Assembly (NCBI GenBank): GCA_042571705.1
Contig: JBHPFV010000007.1
Coordinates: forward strand, 1 to 59,097
DNA: 59,097 nucleotides
Origin: Candidatus Omnitrophota bacterium
Lineage (GTDB): Bacteria; Omnitrophota; Gorgyraeia; JAFGHF01
Reading direction: 5' to 3'
Below are positions 3,636-42,083 of this stretch, in pieces. A program made the position numbers and the translations under genes. The first letter of the stretch is position 1. Each line of letters opens with the position of its first letter. The notes below the pieces were generated by a model that saw only the letters and a list, made by a program, of their open reading frames with translations, was not told where the DNA came from and did no database searches.

Positions 3636-3647
3636 GGTCGTTACCTT

Positions 3648-11053: not shown

Positions 11054-11222
11054 ACAATCCTTTCATGTGCGCAATTGCCGTTCTAAGCTATTGCCCTAGA
11101 CAAATGATTTTACCCTAAACTCAAACGGCTTGCAACTTCTTTTTATTATCCGTCATTTTTCCTTTTGTTTTTCATGAACTTGTGTTACAATCTCTTAACA
11201 AGCATAGAGTTAGGAGAATTGG

Positions 11223-13985
11223 ATGCTGTTAGTAATCTTTTTGCTGATTGTGGCCACAGTGGGCGCGATTGTTTATGGTTTAAGTCTGATTGATCAGCCG
11301 GATCAAGATGAACAGCAAACAGTTAAAGGCCGAAAACCTAAAACTGGCGCCTCAATCCAAGCCAAATATGATCAGTTAAAAATAGAATTTGAGGATCTGC
11401 GGAAGGAGTTATCCGCTAACTCCGGCGTCAATGATGAGTTAGAAAAGTTAAAACAGCAGCAGCAAAAAGATCAGGAAGAATTAGTTACTCTACAAAAAGA
11501 TAACTCTAACTTGAAAAGGCTGAAACAAAAAGAGCATGGAAAAGTAGAGTTTCAGCTAAACGAAAACGCCAGGATCAATAAAGAACTTTTAAAGAACGAG
11601 CAAGCCCGGGAAGAGCAGGCCGCAAAGAACTCTGAGTTACAGAACAAGATACAAGAGTTAACTAAAGAATTAGAGTTGCTGCAGGAAAAACTGACCAAGA
11701 AAAAGCCTTCCAAGAAAACTGCCGCGAAAAAAGAAACAACTCAAGAACAACCACCGCCAGAGCCTGAAAAGCCGGACCCCATCCCGGAACAACCCCAACC
11801 GGAAAAAGAAGTCAGCACCCCGCTTGAGTCTACCATTACAGAACCGCACCCGTTAAAACCGCAAGAACCAAAACCAGAGCAGCAACCTGTTGTCGAAGTA
11901 GACTTAACTAAGATCCGGAATATCGGCATCGTGGCGCATATCGATGCCGGCAAGACCACCACCACGGAAAGAATCCTCTATTTTACCGGCAAATCCCATA
12001 AAATTGGCGAAGTTCATGACGGCAAGGCCCAAATGGATTGGATGAAACAAGAACAGGAACGCGGGATTACCATCACCTCCGCGGCCACCACCTGCTACTG
12101 GAATGAAAACAGAATTAATATTATTGATACGCCCGGACATGTTGACTTTACCGCCGAAGTTGAGCGCAGCCTGCGCGTGCTTGACGGCGCGGTGGTGCTC
12201 TTCTGCGCTGTGGCCGGAGTGGAACCGCAATCCGAGACGGTCTGGCATCAGTCTAACAAATACCATGTCCCCAAGATCGCGTTTGTGAACAAAATGGACC
12301 GCACCAGCGCGGATTATTTTGCGGCCTTAAAGGACATCGAGGATAAGCTCGGGGCCAATGCTGTGCCATTAGTCATACCTTTAGGCAAAGAACGCGATTT
12401 CCGCGGCTGCATTGACCTGATCGAACTTAAGGCCTATGCCTATGATGACCCTCAAGGAAAAGATGTTACCATCATGGAGATACCTCAGGAATATCAGGAG
12501 AGCGCGGCAAAATACCGTAATATAATGATTGAGCGGGTTGCCGCGGAAGATGAGGCATTAATGAAAAAGTTCCTGGATTCTCCCGATTCCATAACCGCGG
12601 ATGAATTGCATCAGGCGATCCGCAAACGCACCATTGCTAATTCAATAGTGCCGGTGCTCTGCGGCTCCTCCTTCAAGAACAAGGGCGTGCAAAAATTACT
12701 CGACGCGGTTGCGCTATATCTACCCTCCCCTCTGGACTTACCTGCCATCAAGGGGCACGACCCCGACAATCCGCAAAACATAGTGGAGATAAAACAAGAT
12801 ATCGACCAGCCGCTTTGCGCCTTGGCCTTTAAAGTTCAGTCTGACCCACATATCGGTAAGCTTGTATACACCAGGATTTATGCCGGAGTGCTCCAGGCAG
12901 GTTCTTACGTGCTCAACCTGACCACGCAAAAAAAAGAACGGGTAGGTAGAATTCTTCAGATGCACGCCAACCAAAGAGAAATTCGCGAACAGGCCTACGC
13001 CGGTGAAATTGTCGCCCTGGTCGGCCTGACCAAGACCAAGACCGCAGACACAATCTGTGACCCTGATCATCCGGTGTTGCTGGAAAGCATGAAGTTCTCC
13101 AAGCCGGTAATCTCGGTAAGCATTGCTCCGGAAAGCAGGTCCGACCGGGACAAACTTGGTAAAGGATTGGCCCGGCTTTTAGAAGAAGACCCGACCCTAA
13201 TGGTCAAGCAAGATAAAGAAACAGAAGAAACTATTCTCTCCGGGATGGGAGAACTGCATTTGCAAATCATTGTCTCCAGATTGAAAGAAGAGTTTAAAGT
13301 GGCCGCTATCACCGGACAGCCAAAAGTCGCTTACAAAGAGACAATTTTAGAATCGGCCAGCGGTGAATATAAACATGCCAAACAGACCGGCGGTCGAGGC
13401 CAATATGGCCACGTCGTGTTTGAAATGGCGCCTCTGGAACGCGGTCAGGAATTTGAGTTTACCGATAGTATCAAAGGCGGGGCGATCCCTAAATCATATA
13501 TCCCGGCGGTAAAGAAGGGCATTCTTGAGATAATGCAAAAAGGGGTCTACGCCAAATATCCTGTAGTCGATGTCAGCGTCAATCTCGTTGATGGCTCATT
13601 TCATGAAGTCGACTCATCAGAAATAGCGTTTAAACTGGCCTCGATCGCTTGCTTTAAGCAAACCTTCCTCAAGGCCAAGCCGATACTGCTTGAGCCCTAC
13701 ATGACGCTGGAGGTCAACACCCCGGAAGATTATTTAAACAGCATTGTTGGTTATATCTGCTCGAAAAGAGGAAAGATCTTAGGCATGGACGCCAAGGGTA
13801 AGAACAAAGTAATTTCCGCGGAGGCCCCGCTGGCTGAGATGTTTGGATACGCGACCACATTTCGCTCATTGAGTAACGGCCGGGCAAACGCGACCATGGA
13901 ATTTAAAAAATATGAGCCGGTACCGAGTGAAATTATCGCAACGATTTTAGAAGAAAGCAAAAAGGAAAAGAAAGACGAAAGTTGA
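11223..13985 (+). CDS. fusA: Elongation factor G paralogue with N-terminal TM anchor, coiled coil and Pro-rich linker
   Basis: EF-G from ~aa 227 (nt ~11898): [45 protein letters not shown]; one continuous ORF; AGGAG RBS before 11223. Confidence 0.92.
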
Positions 13986-20363: not shown

Positions 20364-21098
20364 TTAAGGAATTAAATACAAAGTTATACCCACGGCTAAA
20401 ACAATCGCCCCGCTAAAGGCGACCTCAAAAAAAGAGATAAATTCTTGACTTATACTAACCTTATATTTCAATGCGGCCTTGTAAATAGGCAGTCTCAGGC
20501 AGAATATAAACGGAATAATCAGTAAAAAGGCGATCGCGGTTTTAGCAGGTAGAAATATTAGCACGGTGACCGCCCGCTCGAATATCCCATACCACTTCTC
20601 AAATGGGGTATAGCGGTGCTTGTTTTTGAGAAAGCTGGCTTTGAAGGTCTCAATCAAGTAAGTCCCGCTGTAACTGCCGGCGATCAGCAATGTCAGATAG
20701 ATGATAATCTTATCGTTGTTGTAAAAGCTAAGCAGCGGACTGGCTATCCCCTCTACGGGTTTTAAGCCTTTGAGCCCGGTAAAAAATACCGTGGCGATAA
20801 TGGCGATATGCAGGAGTTGATCGGATAGATACGGCCAAAAGCCCTCTTTTTGATCTTTGGTCCGGGCGATCTTGACCCAATCCTGCAAAAGATGGGTTAT
20901 GCTGACCAGGCCGATAAACGCCCAAATACCCGGCAGATGAAGATAAGGCCAGGAGCAAAGGATCAGACAGCCGGTAATTATAAGTACATGAGGTATAGTA
21001 CCTCTTATACCTTTATATCTAAGCTTATAGATCTCGGCAAATTGGAGTGGAAAGTCGCCCACGAAATGGGCTAGTAATAATCGTAGAAAGATGAACAT
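20364..21098 (-). CDS. DUF3307-like membrane protein
   Basis: LLAHFVGDFPLQ, H..QD..K, DQLLH, YGIFER. Confidence 0.75.
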   Translation of the reverse strand: MFIFLRLLLAHFVGDFPLQFAEIYKLRYKGIRGTIPHVLIITGCLILCSWPYLHLPGIWAFIGLVSITHLLQDWVKIARTKDQKEGFWPYLSDQLLHIAIIATVFFTGLKGLKPVEGIASPLLSFYNNDKIIIYLTLLIAGSYSGTYLIETFKASFLKNKHRYTPFEKWYGIFERAVTVLIFLPAKTAIAFLLIIPFIFCLRLPIYKAALKYKVSISQEFISFFEVAFSGAIVLAVGITLYLIP

Positions 21099-21105
21099 AT
21101 CTCAT

Positions 21106-21134
21106 AATATACCTGTGAGTTACGGATTTGTCAA
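21106..21134 (-). promoter_or_regulatory. Sigma70 promoter, probably producing a leaderless transcript
   Basis: TTGACA-17-TATATT ending 7 nt before ATG 21098; no RBS. Confidence 0.6.
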
Positions 21135-21170
21135 GTCCAATCTCACATGGTTGCTAAATCTCCGCCTCAA

Positions 21171-21218
21171 CGGAACTGGTTCCACCGGATTATTAGCATA
21201 AGCTGGGAACCTGTTCCG
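21171..21218. repeat. Intergenic imperfect hairpin
   Basis: CGGAACtGGTTCC...GGAACCtGTTCCG arms with inner TTAT/ATAA. Confidence 0.55.
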
Positions 21219-21280
21219 AGCAGCACAAAGGTGCTTTGCCAGGTTAGTCGTGCCAAAAAGGAAATACATGTTGGGCAATT

Positions 21281-21320
21281 TATCAATACTTATCAATAGC
21301 TATCAAAATATAACAGATAC
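21281..21320 (+). promoter_or_regulatory. 10-bp-periodic direct repeats (candidate HTH binding array)
   Basis: TATCAATACT TATCAATAGC TATCAAAATA TAACAGATAC. Confidence 0.55.
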
Positions 21321-21340
21321 ATAAAATATGTAAAATGAGC

Positions 21341-21369
21341 TTGCATCTAACAACTTTGTGTGATATACT
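21341..21369 (+). promoter_or_regulatory. Sigma70 promoter of the HTH/giant protein locus
   Basis: TTGCAT-17-TATACT with extended -10 TG. Confidence 0.7.
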
Positions 21370-21396
21370 CTTATCATAGTAAACGGGAATGGGCAG

Positions 21397-21633
21397 ATGG
21401 TGAAAAAAATGGGATTAGAAGAAAAACAAGCTTACCCAAAGCGTACGCAGATAATGACACTCCAGGAACTAGCTAAGTATTTAGGAGTGCATCCGATAAC
21501 CATCTATCGCCTACTTAAGGAAACAGATATCCCGGCATTTAAAATAGGAGGACAGTGGAGGTTTAAGAAAGACATCTTAGACCTCTGGCTAATGTCCAGG
21601 ATGGATAAAAGAAACAATCGCCTCCTGAAGTAA
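21397..21633 (+). CDS. Excisionase/BldC-type HTH_17 DNA-binding protein
   Basis: IMTLQELAKYLGVHPITIYRL..IPAFKIGGQWRF. Confidence 0.88.
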   Translation: MVKKMGLEEKQAYPKRTQIMTLQELAKYLGVHPITIYRLLKETDIPAFKIGGQWRFKKDILDLWLMSRMDKRNNRLLK

Positions 21634-21652
21634 TATAATTAGAAGCTAGTCT

Positions 21653-21747
21653 GTCTTTTGAAAAAGGCAAGTTCGCATCAAAAGTGCGATAACGCAAAGC
21701 TCGAGAGTCCCGATTGAAACAGGCGGGACAGTCAGCTGCCAAAAGGC
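21653..21747 (+). ncRNA. c-di-GMP-I (GEMM-I) riboswitch, variant
   Basis: P1 GUCUUUUG/CAAAAGGC; AAAGGCAA; P2 UCGCA/UGCGA; ACGCAAAGCU; P3 GUCCCG/CGGGAC; AGUCAGCUGCC; G20, A47 and C92 equivalents present. Confidence 0.8.
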
Positions 21748-21748
21748 A

Positions 21749-24700
21749 ATGAAAAAACGTAGATTAATCCATATATTTTTCTTCTTGCTCTCACTCTCCT
21801 CCCTACTACTCTATCCTTCATCAGCCATATTGCTGGCCCAAGGTAATCCTCAACCACAAAAAGAAAATTTGATCACGATTAAAAATATTGAGGGCATGGT
21901 CCAGATCAAAAAAGCCGACCAGGCCGGCTGGAGCAAGGCCGCGGCCGGGGATATCCTCTCGACCAACCACAGGATCCGCACGCTGTTAGAATCACGCGCG
22001 GAGCTGGAATACTCAGACGGCTCAATCCTGACTTTAAGAGAAAACAGCATCCTGGATATCAAAGACATCTCCTACGACAAAAAGACCGGAAAACATAAAA
22101 GAGAGATAAAATTAAATTTGGGCGGGATGAAATACAAGGTCACGCCTTTGCGCGAAAAAGGCTCGGAATTTAAAATCCACTCCTCCACTGCTATCGTCGG
22201 AGTCACCGGTACCGAAGGGATCATCGCTACTGATGGTGAGGGTAAGCCAACCAGCAATATCCTGGTCGAAGGCACGACTTACAATACTGATGAAGATGGA
22301 TCAGGCGGACGCCCGTTAAAGGCCGGCAATACCTGGCTGATCGACGAAGCCGCCGAATCCGAAAAATACATGTCCACAGACGATGAAACAGACGCAGCTG
22401 AGTATGATCAGGCCGACCCGGAGCTGGCTGCCAGGTTTAATGCCTTCCTCGCCTTATTTAACCAAAAGCAGGCCCAAGGCTACATCGTCGATGAAGCTAT
22501 CCTGGAAACACTGACCCAGGCGATGCTCAACCGGGATTACCTCAGGGCCAAACAACTGCTTGATCAAGCGGAATTAAAATTAGCCGAGGCCAAAAAACCT
22601 ACTGATCCCCAGGCCCAGGAACTCAGCCAAGCGCTGGAGCTGATCAGGACAGAGTTAGCGGCAAAAGAAACCGCAGGTTATGATTTACAGGGTATCTACC
22701 TGATCTTCTATCAAAGCGAAGAAGCTTACCGGCAAGAAAAATATGCGGCTGGATTAGATCTACTCGAACAGATTAAACTCGGATTATTAAATTTAGTTAA
22801 AGCCGAAGATGATTTTCCGCAAAGACTAAACCAATTAATGGACCGGATCAGTGAAAAAGCAAAACTAGGGTTTATGGTCGAAGAGCCGATCGAACTAGCC
22901 AAAAAATCAGATCTAGCCTATCGTAATGGAGCGCGGGCTGAGGCCGAGGCACTGCTGCTTGAAGCCCGCCAAATGCTATTTCAGGCTAGACGAATAATCC
23001 CGCCGGAGCTATTAGCGGGGCTAACTAGATTAAAGGAAGAGATCTTAACTAAGAAAGCGGATGGCTTTGATATCTTAGAAATCGAAGAGCTTTTAGCCCA
23101 AGTTGATCAATTGCTGGCTCAAGGCAAATATATCGAGGCCGGGCAAATACTACGGGGAATAGAAGCAACCTTGCCTTCGTTAACCAAGACCCTGCCTAAA
23201 GAACTGGCTTATCTATTCAAGACCTTTGAGGAAAAACTGGCTAAAAAAGAGGCCATTGGATTTGATCTGACTGAATTGCAAAATTTAATTAAGTCTGTTT
23301 ATGAAGCTAAACAAGCCGGTGACCTGGAAACAATGAATGCCTTATTAACAGAAGTCTTTACTGTATTAAAACAGCTGGGACCGCCGATTGGATTAACCAA
23401 CCGGCTTAAAGAGTTTAAAGAAAAAGTTGAAGAATTAAAGGCAGCGGGTCTCTCAGCCACAGATATTGACAATCTAGCCATGCAGATCGAGGCGGCCTTA
23501 GCAAAACAAGATCTGAACCTGGTGCGCCAATTGTTAGATCAGGCCGAAGGTCTGCTAGCCTCACTTAAAGACACGGAACCGCCAACAGTTCAGGTATCCG
23601 ATTTAGAGTACAGCGAAGATTCAGTGCAGATCTCTGGTGTAGCCAGCGATAATGTCCAGGTCGACCAAGTCACTGTCAATGGCGCGCTGGCTGTATTGGA
23701 CGATACCGGATCCTTTAATAAGGAATTATTACTCACCTCTTTGCTGGCCGAGGTAATCGTCATCGCCAAAGACGCCGAAGGCAACAGCTCGCCTGAGATA
23801 ATTATCGCTATAGCTGAAGAAAAACTAAGCGCACTCACCACAGAAGATAGCGCTGCAATTCCTGAGCTTAACGCTGATCTTAGTTACAGCGAAACCGGCG
23901 TGGTAGTTACAGGAAAAACAGATCCCGGAGCGGTAGTTACTGCCGGTGAATTAAATGTAACCGCGGATAGCGCCGGGGCCTTTTCCCTGAGCCTGAACGG
24001 ATCGCCTGAATTAGTGGAAAATGGCTTAAGCTTAATCGCTTCCGCCGCAAACGGCAATAGCTCCGCTGAACTAAAACTAGATGTGGAAGATAAATGGCTA
24101 CCGGAACTAGAAGTAACAGACGTCCAGCTATATGACAATATGCCGCCTAGCTTAACCAGTGATCCCTTAAGCTACCAAGGCGAGTTAATCGAAGTAAAAG
24201 GCAAATCTGTTGACACGGCTAATATCACCATCCTGGGAAATGTGGAAGATATCGGCTCAGGAGTAGCCAGCCTGACGATCAATGGCCAAAACGCTAGCTT
24301 AGAGGCCACAGGACAATTTAAACACACCGTATTGCTCACGGCGGAATTAAAATCGATCGCGGTAGAGCTTTTGGATAAAGCCGGGAATAAAAATATCTTT
24401 TCCCGCCCGCTGGACCTATTCCTCTACCCTGCGCTGGTGACTGTAAATGACCGTGAAATTAATGTCGATGAAAATGGAAACTTTTCCACTCAGCTCACGG
24501 CTACTGTTGAGCTAACCGAAGTTCTGATCCAGTCTAAAGATAAATTAGGAAACGAAACTACTCCGCTTAAGCTAATGGTTGTTGATAGGATTGCTCCGGA
24601 AATAAGCTTAGGCGATATCCAATACGAAATTGATTCTGTGCAGATTAGCGGTCAAACTGAACCGGACTCGCTTTTATCGGATACCAGCGGGGCTTTATTC

Positions 24701-27700
24701 CAAGATAATCTCCCTGTAGAGGCATCCGGTTTATTTACCATAACAATCCCCCGGCCAAAAAGCAATTTGACCGGGACATTGGTAGCCCAGGATGCTTCCG
24801 GAAATACCTCTGCAGGCATCGCGGTTACCATCGAGGCCTTAACAGATGAAAAACCGCCTCAACTGAGCGTAGCTAATCTGATTCTTAGAGCGGGTTTGGT
24901 AATTGTCTCGGGCGTAGTCGAAGATGATACGGGAATCGAATCTGTAACAGTCAATAACCAAGCAGTCGAGCTCACCGGCAACGCCTTTTACAAAGAACTT
25001 ACGCTTTCAGCCGATTTGGTAAAAGTAGTGGTAGTAGCCACTGATTTATCCGGTAAAACCGCGACTGTTGAGCAGGTGACCAAAGATGATCTCCCTCCTA
25101 CTCTGACCTTGGCCGACTTAAGCTATGAAGAGGGTTATTGTCTGGTTCAGGGAACGGCAACCGACAACCTGGGCTTAAAAGAAGTAAGAGTAAATAATAT
25201 ACCTATAGATATAGCCCTGCCGGCTGGAGGAGAGTTTGAATATAAGTTGGCCCTAACCGCGGGGTTAGAAAATGTGGTTGTTTCGGCTATTGATTTATAT
25301 GGTAACTATCAGGAAACCGAACCAAAAGAGATAGTCCCGCCGCTGGATCGTGTTGCTCCTATCCTCACTCTTAACGAACTAACTTATGGCAGCCCCACGG
25401 CAATTGTATCCGGAACAGTTACTGACAACATCGGACTAAGATCAGTGCTGATTAATGATCAGCCGATTGATTTTTATGAGGACGGCTCGTTTAAACTAGA
25501 GTTGGATATCACCATTGGATTACCCGAGGCCACACTAAATAACGCTATTTACGACGCTGAGTTCGTAATCATCTCCGGCACAGTAAATCTGCCCAGCCAA
25601 ACCCCTAGTCAAGTAAAAGCCATAGCCGAAGACTTAGCCGGAAATAAAAGCATGGAAATAAAAAGGGAGGTCAACGCCCTGAACCTTGAGGAATATAAAG
25701 TTACAGTTAATGGCTCAGCGGTTGATTTAGAAAATGGGGCTTTTAGAAGTGAATTAATCCTGGAACAAGGCCTGGATACTGTAGCGGTCCTGGTCTATGA
25801 TTCTCTGGGCCGCGTTTCTGAAGAGCTCAAGGTTCCTATAGAAACCACCCCTCCTATTCTTGAGGTAAATCAAGAAACTTACGCCGGAGATACCGTGACC
25901 GTGTCCGGAAAAGCCAGCGATGAGCTTTCCGGTTTAGACGAAATATTAATTAATAATACCTCTATTGATTTTTCCGGCGACGGCGCATTTTCACAAACAT
26001 TACCGATCTCCGAATCCACGGTCACTATAGTGGCCTTGGATAGAGCAGGTAACATGACCGGCTCGATACCGATAACAGTCTCGCCGCCCGATACAGCGCC
26101 GCCACTATTTGTGGTCGGACTGAATCCGGTACCGGCTACTATTGGGAATGATCTGAGCGTAACTATTGATGTCTTAGACAGCAAGACCCGGCAGCCGGAA
26201 ATGTTAGACGGTACACCTGTAGTCAACGCTGTTCTTTCTGACGGTCAAGTTAAGCCCATCGAGATCTCCGGTTCCGGCGCATCATTCTATGGCGCTCTTT
26301 CAACAACCGGCCTGCCTACAGGACTGATTACTTTAACAGTCGAAGGTAAAGATACATCCGGCAACCTGGGTAATGTAAAAGAAGGGCTGGATAATGTCTT
26401 ATTAAATACAATTGATACCAGCGCGCCCAGCTTTAGCGTCAGTCTAACTCCCGCTCCACCTGCTTTCGTAGGGGCCGAGGTTACAGTAAATGCCGCCTCC
26501 AGTGAAACCCTGAAATCCTTACCCAACGGTACGCTGACATTACCGGATGGGATCAGTTTTGAATTCGCCCTGGAAGGCGCTCTCAGCGGCACAAGCTTTA
26601 CCTCCAATTTATCCATCCCGGCTGAGACCATCCCCGGGACAGCTACGCTTAACCTGACTGAGGCGGTGGACCTGGCGGATAATGCGCAAACTTCGCCTAC
26701 TGTTTTTAGTTTTGAGATCGAGCCGGAAGAGGTTGCCGCCAGTCTTCCTTTAAGAATAGAATTCTCTGAAATCACTAATGATCGCATAGCAGTTAAAGGT
26801 CTGAGCAGCCCGCAGGCAATCATCCATATCACGCTGGGAGAAATCAAGGCCGACATCCCCGCTGATGACAATGGGTTGTTCCATTTTATAAAACCTCTCT
26901 TAAGTGAAGACTTAGAATTGATGAGGACATTAGGCGCTTCGATCTTGCTTGATTGTCATGCCACTAACTATGCCGGGCTGATCTCCGAAAAGATCAGTCT
27001 GAATATACCCTTGCCTGCCGCTATTGCGGAGACTAGAGGCGGTGAGAATTTCCTCATCGATATCTCTCCTTACCCGATCGAACAAGGACAAACTGCCCAG
27101 TTTGACATCACTTCACGCCGAGGGCTTCGGGAAGCGCCGAACGTAAGTATCAGATTGAGTAATGGCCGCACAGAGCTGGTGAATATTACCGGTTCAGGCC
27201 GACAATTCCAGGGAATCTATCAATCAACACCGGCCACAGCAATCGGCCCGGCTATTATCCAGATCAAAAGTGAGGATATTTTTGAATCCCGTCCTGGCCT
27301 GATTGTTCCTTCTTCCGAAACCTATGCGGCCATGGCCGGTTCAGGATTTTTTACAATCATCGCCAATCCGGATCCTTTGCCGATGGGAAAAGAATTGGAT
27401 GTTTCCATCACCGCGGAGCGCGCGATAAAGAAAACTCCCAGCTTAGAGATCAGACTGCCCAATGGCAGATTAGACCAGATCATTGTATCAGGAGAAGGCT
27501 CGCAGTTTAACGGAAAATATCTCTGTCCTCAAGATATCCATCCCGGACCGGCGGAGCTAATCGTAAATATGGGTCAACGCAGCGAATCCCGGCGTCCTTT
27601 TGGTATCGCTCCTCCTTATGGTAGAAGGACTCGCGAAGGTGATGTGTTCACATTTTCCAATCCCCGGCCTATGGCTACAGGCAGCTCAGCCACAGTCACT

Positions 27701-30700
27701 GTAAAATCCCGGCACCCCTTAGAAGAAATACCTGGCGCGCAGCTGCTCACCAGCGCTGGCAAGCTTATTCCTATCGAACTCAGCGGCAGCACTCCGGGTC
27801 ATCTATTCAATGCCACAATAGAAATATCCAGTGAGGTAAGTTTGGGGCCGGCGGTAATCATTATCAAAGATCAGGAAGGCAATATCCTTGATGAACATCC
27901 TACAGAAATCACTCCCGGGTTTGGCGCGGCGGATATGGAAGTAGAGGCATTGATGGTCCCTTCACCGGCTACGCCCAATCAAGTAGTAATGATCAATGTA
28001 AACTCTTTGGGTAAAGAACTTAATTTTAGGCCGCGGGGAAAACTGATTTTCTCAGACGGTTTAATCACGCCTTTGAATCTGGAAGGGCCGATACCGGCAA
28101 TGCAATTCAGGACCCCAATAACAATACCGCAAACCGCATCCTTGGGTCCGGTAAACATAATGATTCTCGATGCAGCCGGCCTGCCTATTGGCGGAGGTCA
28201 AGCTTACATCTCCAGGACTCAGCGCGGTGGCGGTTCCGGTGAGCTAAAGGTGTCAGTGATGCCTCCCAATCCTCTGCCGGGTGACCCCTTAGAGGTTTCC
28301 ATATCTTCAGATGCCAGCTTGCAATCTATCAGATGCGCTTTAGAAGTACCTGGGAAAGGGCCTCAGGATATTCGCTTAGAGGGTCCGATACCCGGAAATA
28401 GATTTAGAGCGAATATCTCGTTCCCTCGCGATGCCCAACCTCGAGGTTCAAGAATAGACGTGTTCTTTGATCGCGGGGCCGGCGAAGAAACACAAAGCTT
28501 CTTCCTCGAAGGCCGACATCACGAAGGAGGAGGTCACCGGCCGCCTGAACTAAACCCCTTCCCTCCTATGCCCGGAAAGCCCCTGGTGATCACTCTACAT
28601 GCGCCTTTCATAATGGACTTCGCGCCCAGCGTCAGAGTAAATTACATAACCGGCAATGAGTCATTAGCTACTAACGGCCCGATACCCGGAGACAGATTTA
28701 CCGGAACTTTACCTAATGTAGCCATGGCGGTAACATCGATCGATGTCTTAGGTCCCGGAGGTGAATTGTTAGTCAATCTACCTATTGAAATGCTGGGCGG
28801 CAGGCATGATGCGCCGCATATACAAATTATGCCCTTACCTTTAATGCCTGGCTCCCCGGCAAACCTGAGGCTGGAATTCCCTAGGCAGGTTTACAGTCTG
28901 CCAACAGCAAGCATAAAATTAGAAACCGGCCGGATGGTCCCGATAACTTTAACCGGTCCGATCCCCGGCAGCATGTTTACGGGCATGTTCAGCATTCCCC
29001 ACGATACTTCGTTCGGTCCGGCAAACTTAGAAGTTTATATCGATAACCAGCTTGTGCCCGGCGGCACCATGCCGGTCAATATCGGAGACAGCGGCCCTGT
29101 TAGCGGTGATCTTTTGGCCTTAATGATCTTCCCGGGAGCGCCGGGAGAATTAAATATAGATTGGCACCTCTTGCCTAGGGCAGAAAGACATAAAATAGAA
29201 TGTCAGGCCCCGGGATTACCTAAAAAGACATTTGACGCCGGCAGGAGGAGTCATTATTTTGTAACAGGCTTGGAGGCCGACAGCGAATATAAAGTAACAG
29301 TCATCGCCTTTGACAGCAGGCGTAGAGAAATTACCCGTTCAGAGTATTATATCCGAACCATCAGCTCAGCCTATGGCGGCCAGGGTTTTCCCCTTTATGT
29401 TCACCCTTCCGGACCGGGAAACCTGCAAATAAACTGGGACCATCAACCAGGCGTGCTAAGTTATAATCTCTTCTACGTCCAGGGAGCTAATGACCCATTA
29501 ACTCAAACACCGCACCCGGCAGGTAATGCCACAAGTTATCATTTATATGAGTTGGCTGCCGGGCAATATCAAATTCAGGTAGAAGCAATGCTCTCAACAG
29601 GCGAGACAATGCTCAGTGAAATCAGAACAGAATATGTCAGCAGTGATTTTGATTATGGCCGGCCTCCTGTAGAGCTACATCCCTATCCGCCTATAACCGG
29701 ACAACCTTTAGATATTGATGTGCTGCTTCCGATGACAATTCCTGTTCTGCCCAGTGTAAAAGCCCAATACGCCACTGCCGGTGAAGACGCCTTTACCATG
29801 TCCGGGCCCCTGCCGGGCTCTAGCTTCCACGGGACCCTGGCCTCAGTAAAAGATACGATTACCGCGATAAATTTCTATGACCCGATCAGCGGCGGAATGA
29901 AACATTCCCATCCGATTGGCGGGGATTTGTATTATGATATTACACCATATGACCTCTGGGTCAGAATCAGCGTAGATCCTGAGCCAGCTGTAGGCACTGA
30001 GACAAGTATTAATCTTGATTTCAACCAAGAAGTTGATTTTCAACACGCGGGGTTAAGACTGCTGGTAGGTTTTGTGGGTGGCCGAGAAATTGAGATACCT
30101 GTATCTAGTTCCGGCCCGCAAATGAGCTATCAGGCTATGCTAAGCGCGACCCAGCATAGCGAAACCATAGAAACGATCGGCATAGAAGGTTCCCGAGGCA
30201 TGGTCCCTGAAGAATATATCAACACCCAGGCCAGCGGTGGAATTACCGCCACGCTCTCGATCACGCCTGATCCGCCAATAATGGGTACAAATACACAAAT
30301 TCAAGTCAGTATAGCTGACGCTGGCACGTATCAACCGCGCAATATAGATTCGCTTCCTGCGGTCGGCGTAGATCTTGCTAGCGGCACGATGTGGGAATTA
30401 ACTGCCAATGGATCATTGCCGGGTTCTGAGTTTTCCGCTGAACTAACTCAAGCTATGTTCACTGCCCCTATTGAGTTAATTGACGTAGAGTATAATGGCG
30501 TGCTTATTGCCAGCAAGACTTTTGTTGTCGAAGGTGGCCCGGTTACATTTGGCCCGATGTTCTATCCCGATCCTCCGCAAACCGGACAGCCGTTAAACTT
30601 GAATCTGGATATTCCTCCCGATGAACCACCCATGTCTGGATTCCCTGAGGTCAAGATTAATTACGCCTCAGGCACAACTCCAGCAAGTGAATATATGGAA

Positions 30701-33700
30701 ATCAGCGGCGCGCTTCCCGGCCGGCATTTCAATGGATTACTGCCTGAGGTCAAAGGGCCAATTGTATCCGCGGACTTCATTAATCCCCTGACCGGTACCA
30801 TAGAACACACTTATTATTTTACCGCTGGATCTACGGATTACGCTGGCGGCACAATTGATGTCGCGCCTAATGATCCGCCATTAGCCGATACTGCAATTGA
30901 GATAACTTACCATGCTGATCGCACAGTCTATCAACGGCCGATCATCGAGATCCACTACCTCGACAATTCAATGGAAGTTTTTGATGGCCTGGGTCCTGTT
31001 CCGGGCATGACCTTCAATGTATCTCAATATATTACAAAACAAGTCACGCGCATCGAGGCCTGGAACCTCCAACATTCCTTAATATTCGCTAGTAGACATT
31101 TTGCGCATCCCGGAGGCGAGGGCGCAGGTGCAATTGCCGTTGCCCCTGATCCACATTATCCGCCTACAACAGTAGCTATACAGGCAACTACAGACTATGT
31201 TCAATCAAATTTCCCATTCTTAAAGATATTCTACTGGGACAATAGCTTAGAAACTGTGACCCTTGCAGGAGATCTACCCGGTACTTCATTTAGCGTAGAA
31301 CATTACATTACAAAGGATATAGAAAGAATCGAGCTTTTGAGTTCCGGCCAGGCCCAGCTTGCTGTGCGTTACTTTCATGATGGGCCAGATGCAGGTGAAG
31401 GCACAATTGCCATTAGTCCTGATCCTGCTTACGCAAATACTACAGTTACTATTAATGTAACTACTGATAATTCGCAACCAGGCCTGCCGATACTCAAAAT
31501 ATTTTATTCTGATAACACTGTGGAAAGTACTCCTCCTGTTCTTACGGGAGAACTACCAGGGACTTTTTTCACTGTAGATTATTACACCTTAAAAACCATA
31601 GTCCGAATCGAAGCCTTGACCCCAAGCTTAACTAATGTAATTGCCGCCCGCGATTTTTATGATGACGATGGTGGTCAAGATTTCGGACCTACGTTTACTC
31701 CTGACCCACCTGTGGTTGGTGAACCATTATCGATGGTATTAGAGCTAGACCCTAACGAACCGCCGATATACGGTTATCCAATAGTGCGGATAAATTATGT
31801 TTCCGGAACATCTCCGGAGAGCGAAGACATGCAAGTCTCCGGCGCTGTACCGGGACGGTACTTTGAGGGTTATTTATCCGAGGTAAAAGGCCTGGTGGAA
31901 ACTGCTGAATTTATCGACCCAATCTCAGGATCCACAGAACATACGCATTACTTTGTCGAAGGAATTATGTCGTCGTTGGTAGATGCTTCTGTGACACTCA
32001 CTATTTCTCCTGATCCGCCGATATTCGGAGATAGTCTGGAGGTCACCGTAACTACTACACCTGCCGTACGCACACCGATTATAGAAATAATTTATCTAGA
32101 TGGAGATGTGTTTGAGCCGGTTGTTTCCGGAGCAGATCCGGGAATGAACTTTACTGCCACATTAAGTGAACTGACCAAACCCATAGACAAAATTGAACTT
32201 CTCTCAGGAATGAATGATCCTCAACCGGATGAACTTGTGGAAACATTTTACCTCAATCTGGGCAGCCTGCCCTATCCAACAAATGTTTGGTTAGAAGCAG
32301 GTGGTCTACCTACTGAGGTATTTGTAAACTGGGATAGTGTTTCTGAAGCCGATGGTTATTTTATATATTATAGCCTTTCCGAAGATCCCTTCCACTCATC
32401 CGACTACGTACAGGTGTTTGAAAAGAACATTACCAGAGAGATAGTCAGCGGGCTTTCCAGTGGTGAGACTTATTATTTTGTTGTTAGCGCCTACGCCAAT
32501 GACGGCCGGGAAAGCGGCTTTGACATGGAAGAATCATGGGTGATTGGTTCAGGAACCGCGGGTGAAGGCTCACTCACCCTGCTGAGCCCCGCTCCTTTGG
32601 GCGACTTTGGCGAGATTGACTTTGACAATGTCACGCAAGGCACGACATCAGACAGCGAGACTATTACAATTCAAAATACAGGCACCAGCACCGCTACAAT
32701 TAGAGCCTTCGGCGGAACATTGCTCAATGTCTTAAATCCCGAAGACACTATCCCGGCCAGCAACGTCAATTTTACAGATGGTTACACCATCGCCCCATCC
32801 GGCAGCGAATCCCGGTCAATCACTGTCAGCGTACCATCAGGGACTCCTTCGGGAGATTATCTGAGTGTCCCCGGAAACAGGTTAATACTCTATGATGATA
32901 TCAATGGAAACGGTTCCTTAGATAGCGGTGAGAGTTTTGTCAAGATTGAGCTGCGAGTTACTGTTGGTGTTGAAGGGTTGGATGCGCAGGAGTCCGGCGT
33001 AATGTTTGATGTCACCGCTCCGGGCACAACCACCGCTACCAAGACAATCCATGTAGAGAATACCTCCGGCGGCACCTTAGCGAATATCCAGCTAGAAACC
33101 AACACGTTATATAAACAAGGGAATTTTTCACAGACTATTTCCTCTTCCAACATAATATTTAGTCTTAATTCCGCGGTTGCCGGGACCTTGGGGGTCGGTG
33201 AAACCACAAGTTCATCGATTTATGTCTCTGTCCCCGCGAATACTATAGCCGGTGACTACGGCGGGGCAATGGTAATCTATAATGATACTAACTACAATTC
33301 TTCGCGTGATAACGATGAGCCTTTTGTCAGTGTTTTAATGATGGTACCTGTAAGCGGCTCACCCGATATTGGCAATCTCAGCGCCGTTAACCGCGGCACC
33401 GGCGGCACCGTCGATCTGACCTGGACTGATTCAGATACAACTACCGACCACTATCATGTTTATTATAGAACCTCTGCTGAATCACATGTCTGGGGCTCAC
33501 CGGATGAGCATACATTTGACAAGGCCTTTCAAGTTACCGGATTAACTGATAATACTGCTTATTATTTTGTAGTCCGGGCCGCGAATAGCACTTGTACTGA
33601 AGATACAAATACAACCGAGGTCTCGGCCACCCCGACAACATCAGGAGCTGATATTACGCCTCCTACATTCGCTGGAATCGCTTCCGCCTTTGGTAATGGC

Positions 33701-35620
33701 GAATATGGCCAGGTAGTGATAGAATTTTTCTCAGCCTCGGACGCCAGCACCCCCATTTCCTACTCGGCTTACTACGGAACGGATCCTAATACTATTTTCG
33801 ATAATACCCCGGTTAGCGTAACGCCGTCCTCCCACTTAATACTTTCCTTACAGGATGGCACGACCTACTATTTTGCGGTCCGGGCCAAAGATTATTATAA
33901 CAACGAAGAAAAAAATACGCGCATTGAAACAGCCATACCTTATGGTTCAGCCGACCATATTGCCATCACCTCTGAAGCTTCCTCAAGCGCTGTAGGCAGC
34001 CCGGTCTTGGTAAAAGTTACGGCCTATTCTTCCGCTGATAACTCAACGGTAGATACCTCTTTTACGGATTCTGTTAAGGTCTATATAGAAGAGGCCATAG
34101 ATTATGGACAACCCCGCTGCATAGTCTCTCTGCAGGATAGAGTCAGCGATGATCAGGCTGAAGTGGCCATGGTTGCCGGCGAGGGGTATTTCACAATAGA
34201 TGCGGTGGAGACAACAACGGTCGAAATATTTGCAATAGGACTGCCCACTAACACGCTAAGCATAGATTTTACCGGCGCTGCAGGATCAGGCATCGATCAG
34301 TTCGCGATAGAAGGAGCCTCTTCAGCTATGACCGGCACCGACACTAATGATGGCGCCCTAATCTGGATCAGCGCGCTTGATTCAACAGGAAAAGTACTCG
34401 ATCAATATTTAGGGGAAATCGACATTACTGTAAGTGGCGCTGGATCACCGCAGCTATGGAGAGACGGTTCTCAAGTATCTGGCAGTTCTCCATATCGAGT
34501 AACTTACACTACAGGTGAAAACAGCGAAATGAAGTTATACCTAAAGAATGCTGTATCCGGATCGTTCACAGTCAGCGCCGAAGAAGTTATTAACACTGAT
34601 CACGACTCAAACGATTTCTCGGTAAGTTTTTATGGAGTTGATGGTTATCTTTTGGAGTCAGCCGGACAATACACCATCAGCGCTGAGACCATCGGCAGCC
34701 GGATCAAGTGGACCGCCTATTCAGTAAATAATAGTGACACACCGCTCAGTGGTTACAATGGCCAGGCCGAGATGGTCACACTCAGTGGTGACGATAACAA
34801 TAGCGCTATGGTCATACCTTCGACAATACAATTTGTCAACGGTATCGCTGAATTCTATGTCGAAAATTCTGAATATGAGACCGTAACCTTCAAAATACAA
34901 GATATCAGCGATAATCTTATAGATAGCGACAATGCTTATGCTACCTTTACCTCGACTGATACTGAGGGACCTGACTTAATTAGAGTGGAAGCGGAAACGC
35001 CGTTTTTGCTCCATCTCTATTTCTCTGAAGCGATAGACTCCGATAGCGCCTTTAACAAAAATAACTACGGTAATGCCGTAACAGCTGGAAATATAGATAA
35101 GATCTGCTGGTATGAAGATGAAGTAACACTACACTTAGGCGCCAGCCTAAATTTAGGTCAAGGTTATACTCTAACCGTTTATGGTACATCTGGTGACGAG
35201 ATCAAAGACGGAGAAGGCAATTATATGGGAGGAGATCAAAGTAAGGATTTCACCGTCCCCAATGTTGACTATCAGGGCTCAAGTTACGGTGGAGGAGATT
35301 GGCTAGAGATCCAGGTCTCTCCTGCCAACCTGCCCACTGGATCTGAACAAACTGTTCATGTCATCGTCTATCATAAGAATGCCTGTGGATACTTAACCGG
35401 CGCCAACGCGATTAACCGCTCGGAGGATGTCTCCGGCATCACTCTCGTTTATGGCGGCGACGACCAGAGAATCATCACTAAACCTTCCAGTAGCTCAATG
35501 GGCAATGGAGTTTGCGAATTTGATATCACTATCGACTTCGATAACTCGGATGAATCTGTCACTATCACCGCCGAAGCAGGAAATGTCACTTCAGGCGAAG
35601 CCACTATCGAGGCCAACTAA
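21749..35620 (+). CDS. Giant (4623 aa) exported protein: signal peptide, FecR domain, helical repeats, many Ig-like/Fn3 domains
   Basis: Sec signal; FecR-like RIRT..SRAELEYSDGSILTLRENS..STAIVGVTGT; ~60-aa helical repeats; DTxPP..DxAGN Ig repeats; Fn3 (W..Y..GL....Y.F.V.A); DxNxNG Ca-binding-like loops. Confidence 0.85.
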   Translation: MKKRRLIHIFFFLLSLSSLLLYPSSAILLAQGNPQPQKENLITIKNIEGMVQIKKADQAGWSKAAAGDILSTNHRIRTLLESRAELEYSDGSILTLRENSILDIKDISYDKKTGKHKREIKLNLGGMKYKVTPLREKGSEFKIHSSTAIVGVTGTEGIIATDGEGKPTSNILVEGTTYNTDEDGSGGRPLKAGNTWLIDEAAESEKYMSTDDETDAAEYDQADPELAARFNAFLALFNQKQAQGYIVDEAILETLTQAMLNRDYLRAKQLLDQAELKLAEAKKPTDPQAQELSQALELIRTELAAKETAGYDLQGIYLIFYQSEEAYRQEKYAAGLDLLEQIKLGLLNLVKAEDDFPQRLNQLMDRISEKAKLGFMVEEPIELAKKSDLAYRNGARAEAEALLLEARQMLFQARRIIPPELLAGLTRLKEEILTKKADGFDILEIEELLAQVDQLLAQGKYIEAGQILRGIEATLPSLTKTLPKELAYLFKTFEEKLAKKEAIGFDLTELQNLIKSVYEAKQAGDLETMNALLTEVFTVLKQLGPPIGLTNRLKEFKEKVEELKAAGLSATDIDNLAMQIEAALAKQDLNLVRQLLDQAEGLLASLKDTEPPTVQVSDLEYSEDSVQISGVASDNVQVDQVTVNGALAVLDDTGSFNKELLLTSLLAEVIVIAKDAEGNSSPEIIIAIAEEKLSALTTEDSAAIPELNADLSYSETGVVVTGKTDPGAVVTAGELNVTADSAGAFSLSLNGSPELVENGLSLIASAANGNSSAELKLDVEDKWLPELEVTDVQLYDNMPPSLTSDPLSYQGELIEVKGKSVDTANITILGNVEDIGSGVASLTINGQNASLEATGQFKHTVLLTAELKSIAVELLDKAGNKNIFSRPLDLFLYPALVTVNDREINVDENGNFSTQLTATVELTEVLIQSKDKLGNETTPLKLMVVDRIAPEISLGDIQYEIDSVQISGQTEPDSLLSDTSGALFQDNLPVEASGLFTITIPRPKSNLTGTLVAQDASGNTSAGIAVTIEALTDEKPPQLSVANLILRAGLVIVSGVVEDDTGIESVTVNNQAVELTGNAFYKELTLSADLVKVVVVATDLSGKTATVEQVTKDDLPPTLTLADLSYEEGYCLVQGTATDNLGLKEVRVNNIPIDIALPAGGEFEYKLALTAGLENVVVSAIDLYGNYQETEPKEIVPPLDRVAPILTLNELTYGSPTAIVSGTVTDNIGLRSVLINDQPIDFYEDGSFKLELDITIGLPEATLNNAIYDAEFVIISGTVNLPSQTPSQVKAIAEDLAGNKSMEIKREVNALNLEEYKVTVNGSAVDLENGAFRSELILEQGLDTVAVLVYDSLGRVSEELKVPIETTPPILEVNQETYAGDTVTVSGKASDELSGLDEILINNTSIDFSGDGAFSQTLPISESTVTIVALDRAGNMTGSIPITVSPPDTAPPLFVVGLNPVPATIGNDLSVTIDVLDSKTRQPEMLDGTPVVNAVLSDGQVKPIEISGSGASFYGALSTTGLPTGLITLTVEGKDTSGNLGNVKEGLDNVLLNTIDTSAPSFSVSLTPAPPAFVGAEVTVNAASSETLKSLPNGTLTLPDGISFEFALEGALSGTSFTSNLSIPAETIPGTATLNLTEAVDLADNAQTSPTVFSFEIEPEEVAASLPLRIEFSEITNDRIAVKGLSSPQAIIHITLGEIKADIPADDNGLFHFIKPLLSEDLELMRTLGASILLDCHATNYAGLISEKISLNIPLPAAIAETRGGENFLIDISPYPIEQGQTAQFDITSRRGLREAPNVSIRLSNGRTELVNITGSGRQFQGIYQSTPATAIGPAIIQIKSEDIFESRPGLIVPSSETYAAMAGSGFFTIIANPDPLPMGKELDVSITAERAIKKTPSLEIRLPNGRLDQIIVSGEGSQFNGKYLCPQDIHPGPAELIVNMGQRSESRRPFGIAPPYGRRTREGDVFTFSNPRPMATGSSATVTVKSRHPLEEIPGAQLLTSAGKLIPIELSGSTPGHLFNATIEISSEVSLGPAVIIIKDQEGNILDEHPTEITPGFGAADMEVEALMVPSPATPNQVVMINVNSLGKELNFRPRGKLIFSDGLITPLNLEGPIPAMQFRTPITIPQTASLGPVNIMILDAAGLPIGGGQAYISRTQRGGGSGELKVSVMPPNPLPGDPLEVSISSDASLQSIRCALEVPGKGPQDIRLEGPIPGNRFRANISFPRDAQPRGSRIDVFFDRGAGEETQSFFLEGRHHEGGGHRPPELNPFPPMPGKPLVITLHAPFIMDFAPSVRVNYITGNESLATNGPIPGDRFTGTLPNVAMAVTSIDVLGPGGELLVNLPIEMLGGRHDAPHIQIMPLPLMPGSPANLRLEFPRQVYSLPTASIKLETGRMVPITLTGPIPGSMFTGMFSIPHDTSFGPANLEVYIDNQLVPGGTMPVNIGDSGPVSGDLLALMIFPGAPGELNIDWHLLPRAERHKIECQAPGLPKKTFDAGRRSHYFVTGLEADSEYKVTVIAFDSRRREITRSEYYIRTISSAYGGQGFPLYVHPSGPGNLQINWDHQPGVLSYNLFYVQGANDPLTQTPHPAGNATSYHLYELAAGQYQIQVEAMLSTGETMLSEIRTEYVSSDFDYGRPPVELHPYPPITGQPLDIDVLLPMTIPVLPSVKAQYATAGEDAFTMSGPLPGSSFHGTLASVKDTITAINFYDPISGGMKHSHPIGGDLYYDITPYDLWVRISVDPEPAVGTETSINLDFNQEVDFQHAGLRLLVGFVGGREIEIPVSSSGPQMSYQAMLSATQHSETIETIGIEGSRGMVPEEYINTQASGGITATLSITPDPPIMGTNTQIQVSIADAGTYQPRNIDSLPAVGVDLASGTMWELTANGSLPGSEFSAELTQAMFTAPIELIDVEYNGVLIASKTFVVEGGPVTFGPMFYPDPPQTGQPLNLNLDIPPDEPPMSGFPEVKINYASGTTPASEYMEISGALPGRHFNGLLPEVKGPIVSADFINPLTGTIEHTYYFTAGSTDYAGGTIDVAPNDPPLADTAIEITYHADRTVYQRPIIEIHYLDNSMEVFDGLGPVPGMTFNVSQYITKQVTRIEAWNLQHSLIFASRHFAHPGGEGAGAIAVAPDPHYPPTTVAIQATTDYVQSNFPFLKIFYWDNSLETVTLAGDLPGTSFSVEHYITKDIERIELLSSGQAQLAVRYFHDGPDAGEGTIAISPDPAYANTTVTINVTTDNSQPGLPILKIFYSDNTVESTPPVLTGELPGTFFTVDYYTLKTIVRIEALTPSLTNVIAARDFYDDDGGQDFGPTFTPDPPVVGEPLSMVLELDPNEPPIYGYPIVRINYVSGTSPESEDMQVSGAVPGRYFEGYLSEVKGLVETAEFIDPISGSTEHTHYFVEGIMSSLVDASVTLTISPDPPIFGDSLEVTVTTTPAVRTPIIEIIYLDGDVFEPVVSGADPGMNFTATLSELTKPIDKIELLSGMNDPQPDELVETFYLNLGSLPYPTNVWLEAGGLPTEVFVNWDSVSEADGYFIYYSLSEDPFHSSDYVQVFEKNITREIVSGLSSGETYYFVVSAYANDGRESGFDMEESWVIGSGTAGEGSLTLLSPAPLGDFGEIDFDNVTQGTTSDSETITIQNTGTSTATIRAFGGTLLNVLNPEDTIPASNVNFTDGYTIAPSGSESRSITVSVPSGTPSGDYLSVPGNRLILYDDINGNGSLDSGESFVKIELRVTVGVEGLDAQESGVMFDVTAPGTTTATKTIHVENTSGGTLANIQLETNTLYKQGNFSQTISSSNIIFSLNSAVAGTLGVGETTSSSIYVSVPANTIAGDYGGAMVIYNDTNYNSSRDNDEPFVSVLMMVPVSGSPDIGNLSAVNRGTGGTVDLTWTDSDTTTDHYHVYYRTSAESHVWGSPDEHTFDKAFQVTGLTDNTAYYFVVRAANSTCTEDTNTTEVSATPTTSGADITPPTFAGIASAFGNGEYGQVVIEFFSASDASTPISYSAYYGTDPNTIFDNTPVSVTPSSHLILSLQDGTTYYFAVRAKDYYNNEEKNTRIETAIPYGSADHIAITSEASSSAVGSPVLVKVTAYSSADNSTVDTSFTDSVKVYIEEAIDYGQPRCIVSLQDRVSDDQAEVAMVAGEGYFTIDAVETTTVEIFAIGLPTNTLSIDFTGAAGSGIDQFAIEGASSAMTGTDTNDGALIWISALDSTGKVLDQYLGEIDITVSGAGSPQLWRDGSQVSGSSPYRVTYTTGENSEMKLYLKNAVSGSFTVSAEEVINTDHDSNDFSVSFYGVDGYLLESAGQYTISAETIGSRIKWTAYSVNNSDTPLSGYNGQAEMVTLSGDDNNSAMVIPSTIQFVNGIAEFYVENSEYETVTFKIQDISDNLIDSDNAYATFTSTDTEGPDLIRVEAETPFLLHLYFSEAIDSDSAFNKNNYGNAVTAGNIDKICWYEDEVTLHLGASLNLGQGYTLTVYGTSGDEIKDGEGNYMGGDQSKDFTVPNVDYQGSSYGGGDWLEIQVSPANLPTGSEQTVHVIVYHKNACGYLTGANAINRSEDVSGITLVYGGDDQRIITKPSSSSMGNGVCEFDITIDFDNSDESVTITAEAGNVTSGEATIEAN

Positions 35621-38323: not shown

Positions 38324-38332
38324 GGGGAACCA

Positions 38333-39454: not shown

Positions 39455-39474
39455 TCTTAAAAAAGGAAGCTTAA

Positions 39475-42081: not shown

Positions 42082-42083
42082 AA

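Follow-up and report, generated by a model that had tools for sequence, protein, structure and literature searches.

A c-di-GMP-I aptamer with its closing helix abutting the start codon of a very large secreted-protein gene in Omnitrophota, a candidate translational OFF switch

How could a bacterium of an uncultured phylum control a gene for a protein of several thousand residues when a putative riboswitch stands directly before its start codon? The question is raised by a stretch of 59,097 nucleotides (nt) from a Candidatus Omnitrophota bacterium (assembly GCA_042571705.1, contig JBHPFV010000007.1; this whole stretch is called the window), in which an open reading frame (ORF) of 4623 amino acids (aa) opens at ATG 21749, with no earlier start codon between it and the preceding stop of this frame. 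A preliminary description, made from the letters alone, had placed before this gene a riboswitch of the c-di-GMP-I (GEMM-I) family, which senses cyclic diguanylate (c-di-GMP), and had proposed that its closing helix P1 buries the ribosome-binding site. We asked what the element is, how it is placed relative to the start codon, and in which direction it would switch.

Comparison of the whole window with 4227 Rfam families returned a match to RF01051 (c-di-GMP-I) at 21656-21743 on the + strand, covering all 87 model positions and scoring 42.8 bits, where the gathering threshold is 35 (E = 4.6e-5), and no other RNA match at gathering level anywhere in the 59 kb. The match was also significant in a 601-nt region (E = 4.7e-7), for which plain c-di-GMP-I was the best-fitting Rfam model, and it was recovered in a search of the whole genome (E = 3.5e-7). 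The hallmark words named earlier are present as AAAGGCAA at 21663-21670, ACGCAAAGCU at 21692-21701 and CAGCUGCC at 21733-21740. In the Rfam alignment the junction words AAAGGCAA, ACGCAAAGC, GACAG and GCUGCC all agree with the consensus, and every core word that the consensus capitalises around the junction is intact. The element is confirmed by family membership as a genuine c-di-GMP-I aptamer, and the covariance-model comparison that the preliminary description had suggested as a check came out in favour of its assignment over the full model length. The parts of the RNA, all on the + strand, are as follows.

21652-21660, +: 5' strand of P1, UGUCUUUUG, which doubles as the 5' arm of a predicted competing hairpin (folding)
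21661-21670, +: conserved aptamer core AAAAAGGCAA, in which G21667 pairs with C21695, and C21668 with G21694
21663-21669, +: predicted 3' arm of the competing hairpin, within the core (folding)
21673-21689, +: P2 hairpin, UCGCAU/GUGCGA (alignment and folding)
21679-21683, +: non-GNRA loop of P2, CAAAA (alignment and folding)
21692-21700, +: conserved linker ACGCAAAGC, every position of which matches the consensus
21698-21737, +: P3 hairpin, with AGCU/AGCU at its base, then GA/UC, then GUCCCG/CGGGAC (alignment and folding)
21738-21739, +: unpaired G and C of GCUGCC (Rfam alignment)
21740-21748, +: 3' strand of P1, CAAAAGGCA, which holds AAAGG (21742-21746) and whose last base adjoins the ATG

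The junction of three helices is complete in alignment and folding, with P2, the G-C and C-G pairs, P3, and a P1 that closes it with 8-9 base pairs (bp). The G at model position 11 of RF01051 is G21666, in a column that we take to be that of G20 in the Vc2 riboswitch, and on this assumed mapping the earlier claim of a G at Vc2 position 20 holds. C21739 we take to be the equivalent of C92 in Vc2, and the linker A that stacks between the ligand bases presumably lies within ACGCAAAGC; the columns of the ligand-contacting nucleotides, so mapped, are filled as in the consensus (G21666, C21739, ACGCAAAGC). In Vc2, G20 pairs with one guanine of the ligand, an A at that position marks sensors of cyclic GMP-AMP (cGAMP), and C92 has a role in ligand contact (PMC6140456). 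Because this RNA has a G at the ligand-discriminating position, c-di-GMP would be its most likely ligand.

The periphery of the aptamer differs from the textbook form. P2 consists of five Watson-Crick pairs and U78-G84, with a loop of CAAAA, or UCAAAAG when the U-G pair is not counted, which is not a GNRA tetraloop; its first pair is a U-U mismatch. P3, which folds at -17.3 kcal/mol by itself, has no tetraloop-receptor motif, and the alignment has gaps in place of the receptor columns CUAA and AuG. In GEMM RNAs the P2 loop is nearly always a tetraloop of the GNRA type, about 50% have the receptor, and RNAs with a GYRA loop almost never do (Weinberg 2007, PMC1950547). Of the two named types (PMC11218506), type I combines a GNRA loop on P2 with a receptor in P3, neither of which is found here, and type II is receptor-less, as here, with a GYRA loop, which this RNA does not have. 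As read from its sequence, the RNA is receptor-less like about half of the family and has a loop of the rarer non-GNRA kind, so that neither named type fits exactly. The preliminary description had called the replacement of both tetraloop and receptor unusual; both are indeed missing, and only the loop is rare, since absence of the receptor is common (PMC1950547).

We then considered the position of P1 relative to the start codon. The pairs between 21653-21660 and 21747-21740 are G-C, U-G, C-G, four U-A and G-C, and RNAfold lengthens the helix to 9 bp with U21652-A21748; the 8-bp P1 described before, with an AAAGG-containing 3' strand that ends 1 nt ahead of the ATG, is thus recovered and slightly extended. 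Its first pair, G21660-C21740, lies in the register of P1 in the consensus of the clan-mate model RF03167, and a run of eight pairs, each standard or G-U, would arise by chance in a given register with a probability of about 0.375^8 = 4e-4. The 3' strand of P1 spans positions -9 to -1 before the ATG, which lies only 5 nt past the 3' end of the aptamer match. When P1 was forced in RNAfold, the unpaired probability of 21741-21744 fell from 0.95 to 0. A terminator scan found no + strand terminator-like site within 21000-22100.

With only 5 nt between aptamer and ATG and no terminator-like site, control would be exerted at initiation or through its consequences, and as a terminator would not fit in this space, the locus is best read as a translational OFF switch, to which we give a probability of roughly 0.6. 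The expression platform would be the closing helix P1 itself. Binding of c-di-GMP would lock the three-helix junction together with P1, so that the ribosome could not land and translation of the large gene would fall. In the ligand-free RNA the U-rich 5' strand would instead pair with the A-rich core (21652-21658 with 21663-21669), which would break the pocket and leave the A-rich leader open. Rho is present in this genome, and the untranslated 13.9-kb message would probably undergo termination or decay; a polar effect that reaches the downstream genes is thus a reasonable expectation. A translational OFF switch is also what the preliminary description had put forward; it remains the most economical reading and is not new, since Vc2 before tfoY works in this way (PMC7371385).

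The folding energies are compatible with such a switch. In a two-state model, P2 and P3 alone gave -24.9 kcal/mol and the aptamer fold with P1 gave -35.4 kcal/mol; the fold with the competing hairpin gave -30.0 kcal/mol, or -34.1 kcal/mol with a 3-bp GCC/GGC mini-hairpin. The unconstrained RNAfold minimum pairs UGUCUUU (21652-21658) with AAAGGCA (21663-21669), which takes up pocket nucleotides and leaves the A-run open, and the ligand-free fold leaves AAAA at 21741-21744 unpaired with a probability of 0.95-1.0. The predicted states are nearly isoenergetic, and a tightly bound ligand could tip the balance to the closed start.

The genome (G000; 1.88 Mb in 73 contigs, 89% complete, 45% G+C) has a working c-di-GMP system, with 9 GGDEF and 22 PilZ matches, and 11 matches to RF01051, 8 of them over the cut-off. 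Two of the 11 show the start-masking design, namely the riboswitch studied here (on contig C7) and one at C1:123634-123721 on the - strand, whose P1, UUUUACCUC/GAGGUGAAA, engulfs a GAGGUGA Shine-Dalgarno sequence that ends 5 nt before the ATG. The preliminary description had linked low c-di-GMP to a motile or searching state; no flagellin was found in the 89%-complete genome, which leaves the motile state without support, and the idea of a searching state at low c-di-GMP is speculation.

Aptamers of this family are common among the relatives of this bacterium. In a sample of 61 genomes of its class, RF01051 matched in 55 and exceeded the cut-off in 52, and a single genome, at a size of 1-2.7 Mb, held as many as 17 matches. 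We examined the platforms of the 30 best-scoring loci from these relatives, using a crude script for terminator-like hairpins. Such a hairpin lay at most 80 nt away in 21 of the 30, and in 5 of them an ORF of at least 60 aa began within 15 nt. Among these five, P1 covers the AUG or the Shine-Dalgarno sequence in two (it takes in the A and U of the AUG at L065 and covers UAGGAU at L068), the Shine-Dalgarno sequence lies just 3' of P1 in a third (L047), and the remaining two (L064, L067) look spurious. Start-masking is a minority design, and the placement of P1 over the start recurs, at C1 in this genome and in two relatives.

Using the N-terminal 617 aa of the protein as query against 401 genomes of the class (E at most 1e-15), we found orthologues of the large gene in 5 genomes, this one included, and on one metagenome contig. 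The six loci are arranged as follows.

G000 (this genome): 115-nt spacer after a gene of the HTH_17 family, holding the aptamer
G274 (locus L040), 69% identity, ORF of 4647 aa: HTH_17 gene, 19-nt spacer and GTG start; no aptamer at E of at most 0.01
G097, 52% identity: no aptamer within the about 286 nt assembled upstream; the word TGGCAT-N5-TTGCT is present
L042, 41% identity: HTH_17 gene, short spacer, no aptamer
G034 (locus L014), 35% identity: aptamer of 50.2 bits, then a terminator
G024 (locus L013), 34% identity: aptamer of 71.2 bits (RF03167) or 70.3 bits (RF01051), then a terminator hairpin

A c-di-GMP-I aptamer is thus present at three of the six orthologous loci (G000, G024/L013 and G034/L014), and start masking is found at G000 only, the other two aptamers using terminators. 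With an aptamer at three of the six, the tie of this gene family to the sensing of c-di-GMP is older than the present copy. Stepwise folding of L014 gave a possible antiterminator, in which the 3' strand of P2 pairs with the 5' arm of the terminator and which would mean OFF, and the same procedure gave no clear competitor structure at L013; neither result is used as support here.

Several observations weigh against a translational OFF switch at this gene. In a survey of 1271 ORFs of at least 150 aa in this genome, in which AAAGG was sought within 20 nt of the start, its distance from the start peaked at 7-9 nt and only 4 of 203 lay at 2 nt, the distance seen here. There is no canonical Shine-Dalgarno sequence for P1 to bury; the 3' end of the 16S rRNA, sought for an anti-Shine-Dalgarno reading, was not found in the assembly. 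The earlier statement that P1 buries the ribosome-binding site therefore holds for the landing-site positions -1 to -9, which P1 covers, and not for AAAGG as a well-placed Shine-Dalgarno sequence. Even without ligand, the nearest-neighbour model gives the P1 fold and the alternative about equal stability (-35.4 vs -34.1 to -36.8 kcal/mol), and by this model the gene could stay closed in part whatever the ligand level, with a small dynamic range. The sequence CUUUUG/CAAAAG is common in the class as a P1 (for example at L051), and P1 would for this reason not seem to be obviously shaped by the start site.

The competing hairpin itself adds to these points. When the upstream bases were shuffled (n = 200), 41 of the 200 shuffles matched or beat it. 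We also surveyed 42 aptamers, made up of the 30 best-scoring ones of relatives, those at L013 and L014, and 10 of this genome (one of two identical copies on contig C32 being dropped), and the core (GG(C/U)) was paired in a hairpin with an energy of at most -5 kcal/mol in 4: the two start-masking riboswitches of this genome, C7 and C1, and two with a terminator-like hairpin downstream, C15 of this genome and L059. Neither shuffles nor survey singles the hairpin out, and we rejected it as a specific design.

Further points concern the quality and descent of this copy. The internal loop of P2 is enlarged to 4x4 (AAGU/UAAC vs AAA/GAC in the consensus). At 42.8 bits its score is low for this genome, where it is shared with the C15 match and only one of the eight over the cut-off is lower, at 38.5 bits, and low against the top scores of 54-90 bits in relatives. 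The closest orthologues, in G274 (69%) and at L042, have no aptamer before the gene, and no close relative with the element was found in a search of 61 relatives, 401 class genomes, genome contigs (which gave no locus) and metagenome contigs (which gave two loci).

A bolder form of the OFF switch is suggested by a repeated word, the 9-mer AAAAGGCAA, which occurs twice, at 21662-21670 within the core and at 21741-21749 over the start site. The C1 riboswitch has a like arrangement in another register, with AGGUAAA in the core vs GAGGUGAAA at the Shine-Dalgarno sequence. One U-rich strand might then toggle between core and start site, so that the pocket would at the same time act as a decoy of the site where the ribosome binds: with the strand on the core, the pocket would be broken and the gene on, and with the strand on the start site, the pocket would be formed and the gene off. 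If this were true, a minimal, platform-free design would be reused across Omnitrophota, where c-di-GMP-I aptamers are unusually dense and mostly ahead of secreted proteins, and a large protein for contact with host or prey would be allowed to be made when c-di-GMP is low. We regard this as a tentative idea.

Among the alternatives to a translational OFF switch, the one that survives best is that the element is real by descent and is a weakened or decaying copy, in which P1 forms regardless of ligand or binding is poor, leaving a constant damper on translation and no switch. The low score relative to paralogues and relatives, the non-GNRA loop, missing receptor and altered internal loop of P2, the stability of the ligand-free P1 fold and the nearest orthologues that do without the element all speak for it. 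The capitalised core words around the junction are nevertheless intact, P1, P2 and P3 are clean helices, the score exceeds the curated cut-off, and the receptor is absent from about half of known GEMM RNAs anyway (PMC1950547). We consider decay an improbable explanation.

Less probable still is an ON switch, in which the ligand would raise expression by dissolving a repressive ligand-free structure or by stabilising the mRNA, as might be expected for a biofilm-type adhesin. Positive control has precedents in the class II switches of Clostridioides difficile surface proteins (PMC6366702), and ON logic was predicted for GEMM RNAs whose terminator overlaps the aptamer (Weinberg 2007, PMC1950547). 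A c-di-GMP riboswitch, Bc2, also precedes cap (PMC4933901). No terminator is present here, however, the sole helix that the ligand would stabilise is the one covering -9 to -1, and the ligand-free fold leaves AAAA at 21741-21744 open; folding gave no structure specific to the ligand-free state that masks the AUG more strongly than P1. For these reasons we think it doubtful that c-di-GMP would turn this gene on. Bc2 is reported to be a positive regulator.

That the RNA senses 3',3'-cGAMP or some other ligand seems very unlikely. Its atypical periphery would allow for it, and two aptamers in relatives, L046 (G050:C31:4841-4928; 83.1 bits) and L055 (G031:C69:4101-4185; 75.9 bits), read AAUAGCAAAC, with an A at model position 11; these are possible cGAMP-type sensors, and GEMM-Ib-like variants may exist in the class. 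The present copy has a G, which discriminates against cGAMP in Vc2 (PMC6140456), and plain c-di-GMP-I is its best Rfam model. Chance resemblance of an A-rich leader and two hairpins that happen to exceed the threshold, for which the margin of only 7.8 bits over the cut-off might speak, is most improbable in view of the E value of 4.6e-5 against the whole library, the full model length, a P1 in the correct register, the 5' regulatory position, and a genome, class and set of orthologous genes that carry such aptamers.

The gene that the riboswitch is predicted to control and its neighbours on the + strand are given below, with the candidate promoters read from the sequence.

21361-21369, +: putative extended -10 element TGaTATACT, before the HTH_17 gene
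21397-21633, +: gene for a 78-aa DNA-binding protein of the HTH_17/excisionase family (PF12728, 56.7 bits; TIGR01764, 52.4 bits)
21634-21639, +: perfect TATAAT hexamer, 13 nt before P1, a possible riboswitch-proximal promoter
21749-35620, +: the large gene, 4623 aa (ORF list and domain search)
35741-42617, +: downstream genes, for a TPR protein (860 aa), a TPR-Glucodextran_B-fn3 protein (373 aa), a CHASE2 class-III nucleotide cyclase (868 aa) and a thioredoxin-like protein (177 aa)

The 4623-aa protein starts with MKKRRLIHIFFFLL, which resembles a signal peptide, and its N-terminus aligns with those of the orthologues. A FecR domain (residues 75-175) is followed by a long helical region and then by Big_6, Glucodextran_B and fn3 domains; in NCBIfam the N-terminal domain has only sub-threshold matches, to Lsa33 and LipL45 of Leptospira. 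These features support a secreted surface protein rich in immunoglobulin-like (Ig) domains, before whose gene the aptamer stands, 5 nt ahead on the same strand; genes with a c-di-GMP-I riboswitch in their 5' regulatory region typically code for proteins of the envelope or outside the cell. The preliminary description had spoken of an adhesin-like protein; the protein is secreted and rich in Ig/fn3 domains, and "adhesin" was a guess.

The HTH_17 gene ends 19 nt ahead of P1, and the riboswitch separates it from the large gene. It also stands before the orthologue of the large gene in G274 (L040) and at L042, where the riboswitch is absent; as it is conserved at this place in three lineages, its product may be the operon's own regulator. 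In NCBIfam this protein best matches the HTH protein of the MADS1 defence system, at 64.7 bits and under the cut-off of 80. Transcription may start at either of the two candidate promoters. TTGCAT (21341-21346), 17 nt upstream of the extended -10 element, has only 3 of 6 positions of the -35 consensus, and the TATAAT hexamer has a weak -35, GAAACA at 21611-21616. The promoter scan called neither of them on the + strand, the -35 of the extended -10 element failing its criterion. The word TGnTATACT is also found ahead of further riboswitches in this genome, as well as ahead of the HTH_17 genes at L040 and L042. The orthologous loci fall into two groups in this region: a sigma-54-like word, TGGCAT-N5-TTGCT, stands upstream of three orthologues (L013 about 3866-3881, L014 about 3857-3872, L041 about 3624-3639, on the minus strand of each locus), and G000, G274 and L042 have instead an HTH_17 gene with a TGnTATACT promoter word.

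The genes downstream may share a transcript with the large gene, as their common strand and short spacers suggest. The CHASE2 class-III nucleotide cyclase (39475-42081, +) has orthologues of 44-76% identity in all 4 other genomes that carry the large gene, and these identities rank like those of the large gene. Linkage of the two was not found in these 4 genomes, where the cyclase orthologues lie on other contigs. On the minus strand at 21913-21929, within the 5' end of the large ORF, a hairpin followed by a T-run resembles a terminator and underlies a weak SorY-like match.

Other features were seen around aptamers and related genes elsewhere. Most of the first long ORFs downstream of the aptamers in this genome start with a signal-peptide-like sequence. 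In three of these aptamers, at C21:10376-10521 (L004), C48:7865-8001 (L008) and C13:36002-36169 (L010), P2 is separated from the GCAAAG linker by a conserved insertion of about 55-70 nt, reading GCCCGCC..UGCC..GGCA..GGCGGGC, which resembles an extra junction domain. At C32:9726-9825 (+) and 11205-11304 (-), an identical riboswitch, leader and start of a secreted-protein gene occur facing each other about 1.4 kb apart, which may be an inverted duplication or an assembly artefact. At one locus in a relative (L018 in G047, 1982-2057, -), a match to a group II intron domain of 51.7 bits adjoins a small FecR-domain gene.

The locus offers a concrete, testable way to approach the regulation of a very large secreted protein in a phylum of small, uncultured cells, the long proteins of which have drawn much discussion. 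Two papers on these long proteins do not mention riboswitches or c-di-GMP in their main text, and among the papers listed by a literature search for Omnitrophota and riboswitch, ComFB was the subject and the search terms were incidental. The six loci also form a small but clear case of regulatory turnover, in which one gene family is tied to the same messenger by different means according to lineage: two have terminators, one has a P1 that masks the start, and three do without a riboswitch.

Each part of this arrangement has counterparts among known riboswitches. Inuzuka, in 2018, is said to have described Vc2 as masking a ribosome-binding site that lies far from the aptamer. Like Vc2, in the tfoY leader of Vibrio cholerae, the present RNA belongs to RF01051 and has a G at the discriminating position. 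Vc2 restricts translation of tfoY when bound to its ligand (PMC7371385), and the translational OFF logic with P1 as the moving part (PMC7371385, PMC9262584) is what we predict here; unlike Vc2, which has a GAAA tetraloop and its receptor, this RNA lacks both, and the 3' strand of its P1 abuts the AUG. With type II GEMM-I RNAs it shares the absence of a tetraloop receptor in P3 (PMC1950547, PMC11218506), whereas they have a GYRA tetraloop and it has a CAAAA/UCAAAAG loop together with the 4x4 internal loop in P2. Cd1, before the flagellar operon of C. difficile, is of the same aptamer class and an OFF switch, as predicted here, but acts on transcription by means of a terminator (PMC9262584), which this locus does not have. 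Bc2, which precedes cap, and the C. difficile switches of class II resemble it in placing a c-di-GMP riboswitch before a gene for a large surface or adhesion protein (PMC4933901, PMC6366702); positive regulation is reported for them and negative regulation is predicted here, and the protein family differs, with a FecR N-terminus and Ig/fn3 domains in the present case. A receptor-less c-di-GMP-I riboswitch with P1 abutting the start of a large secreted-protein gene is a known principle in compact form rather than a new one.

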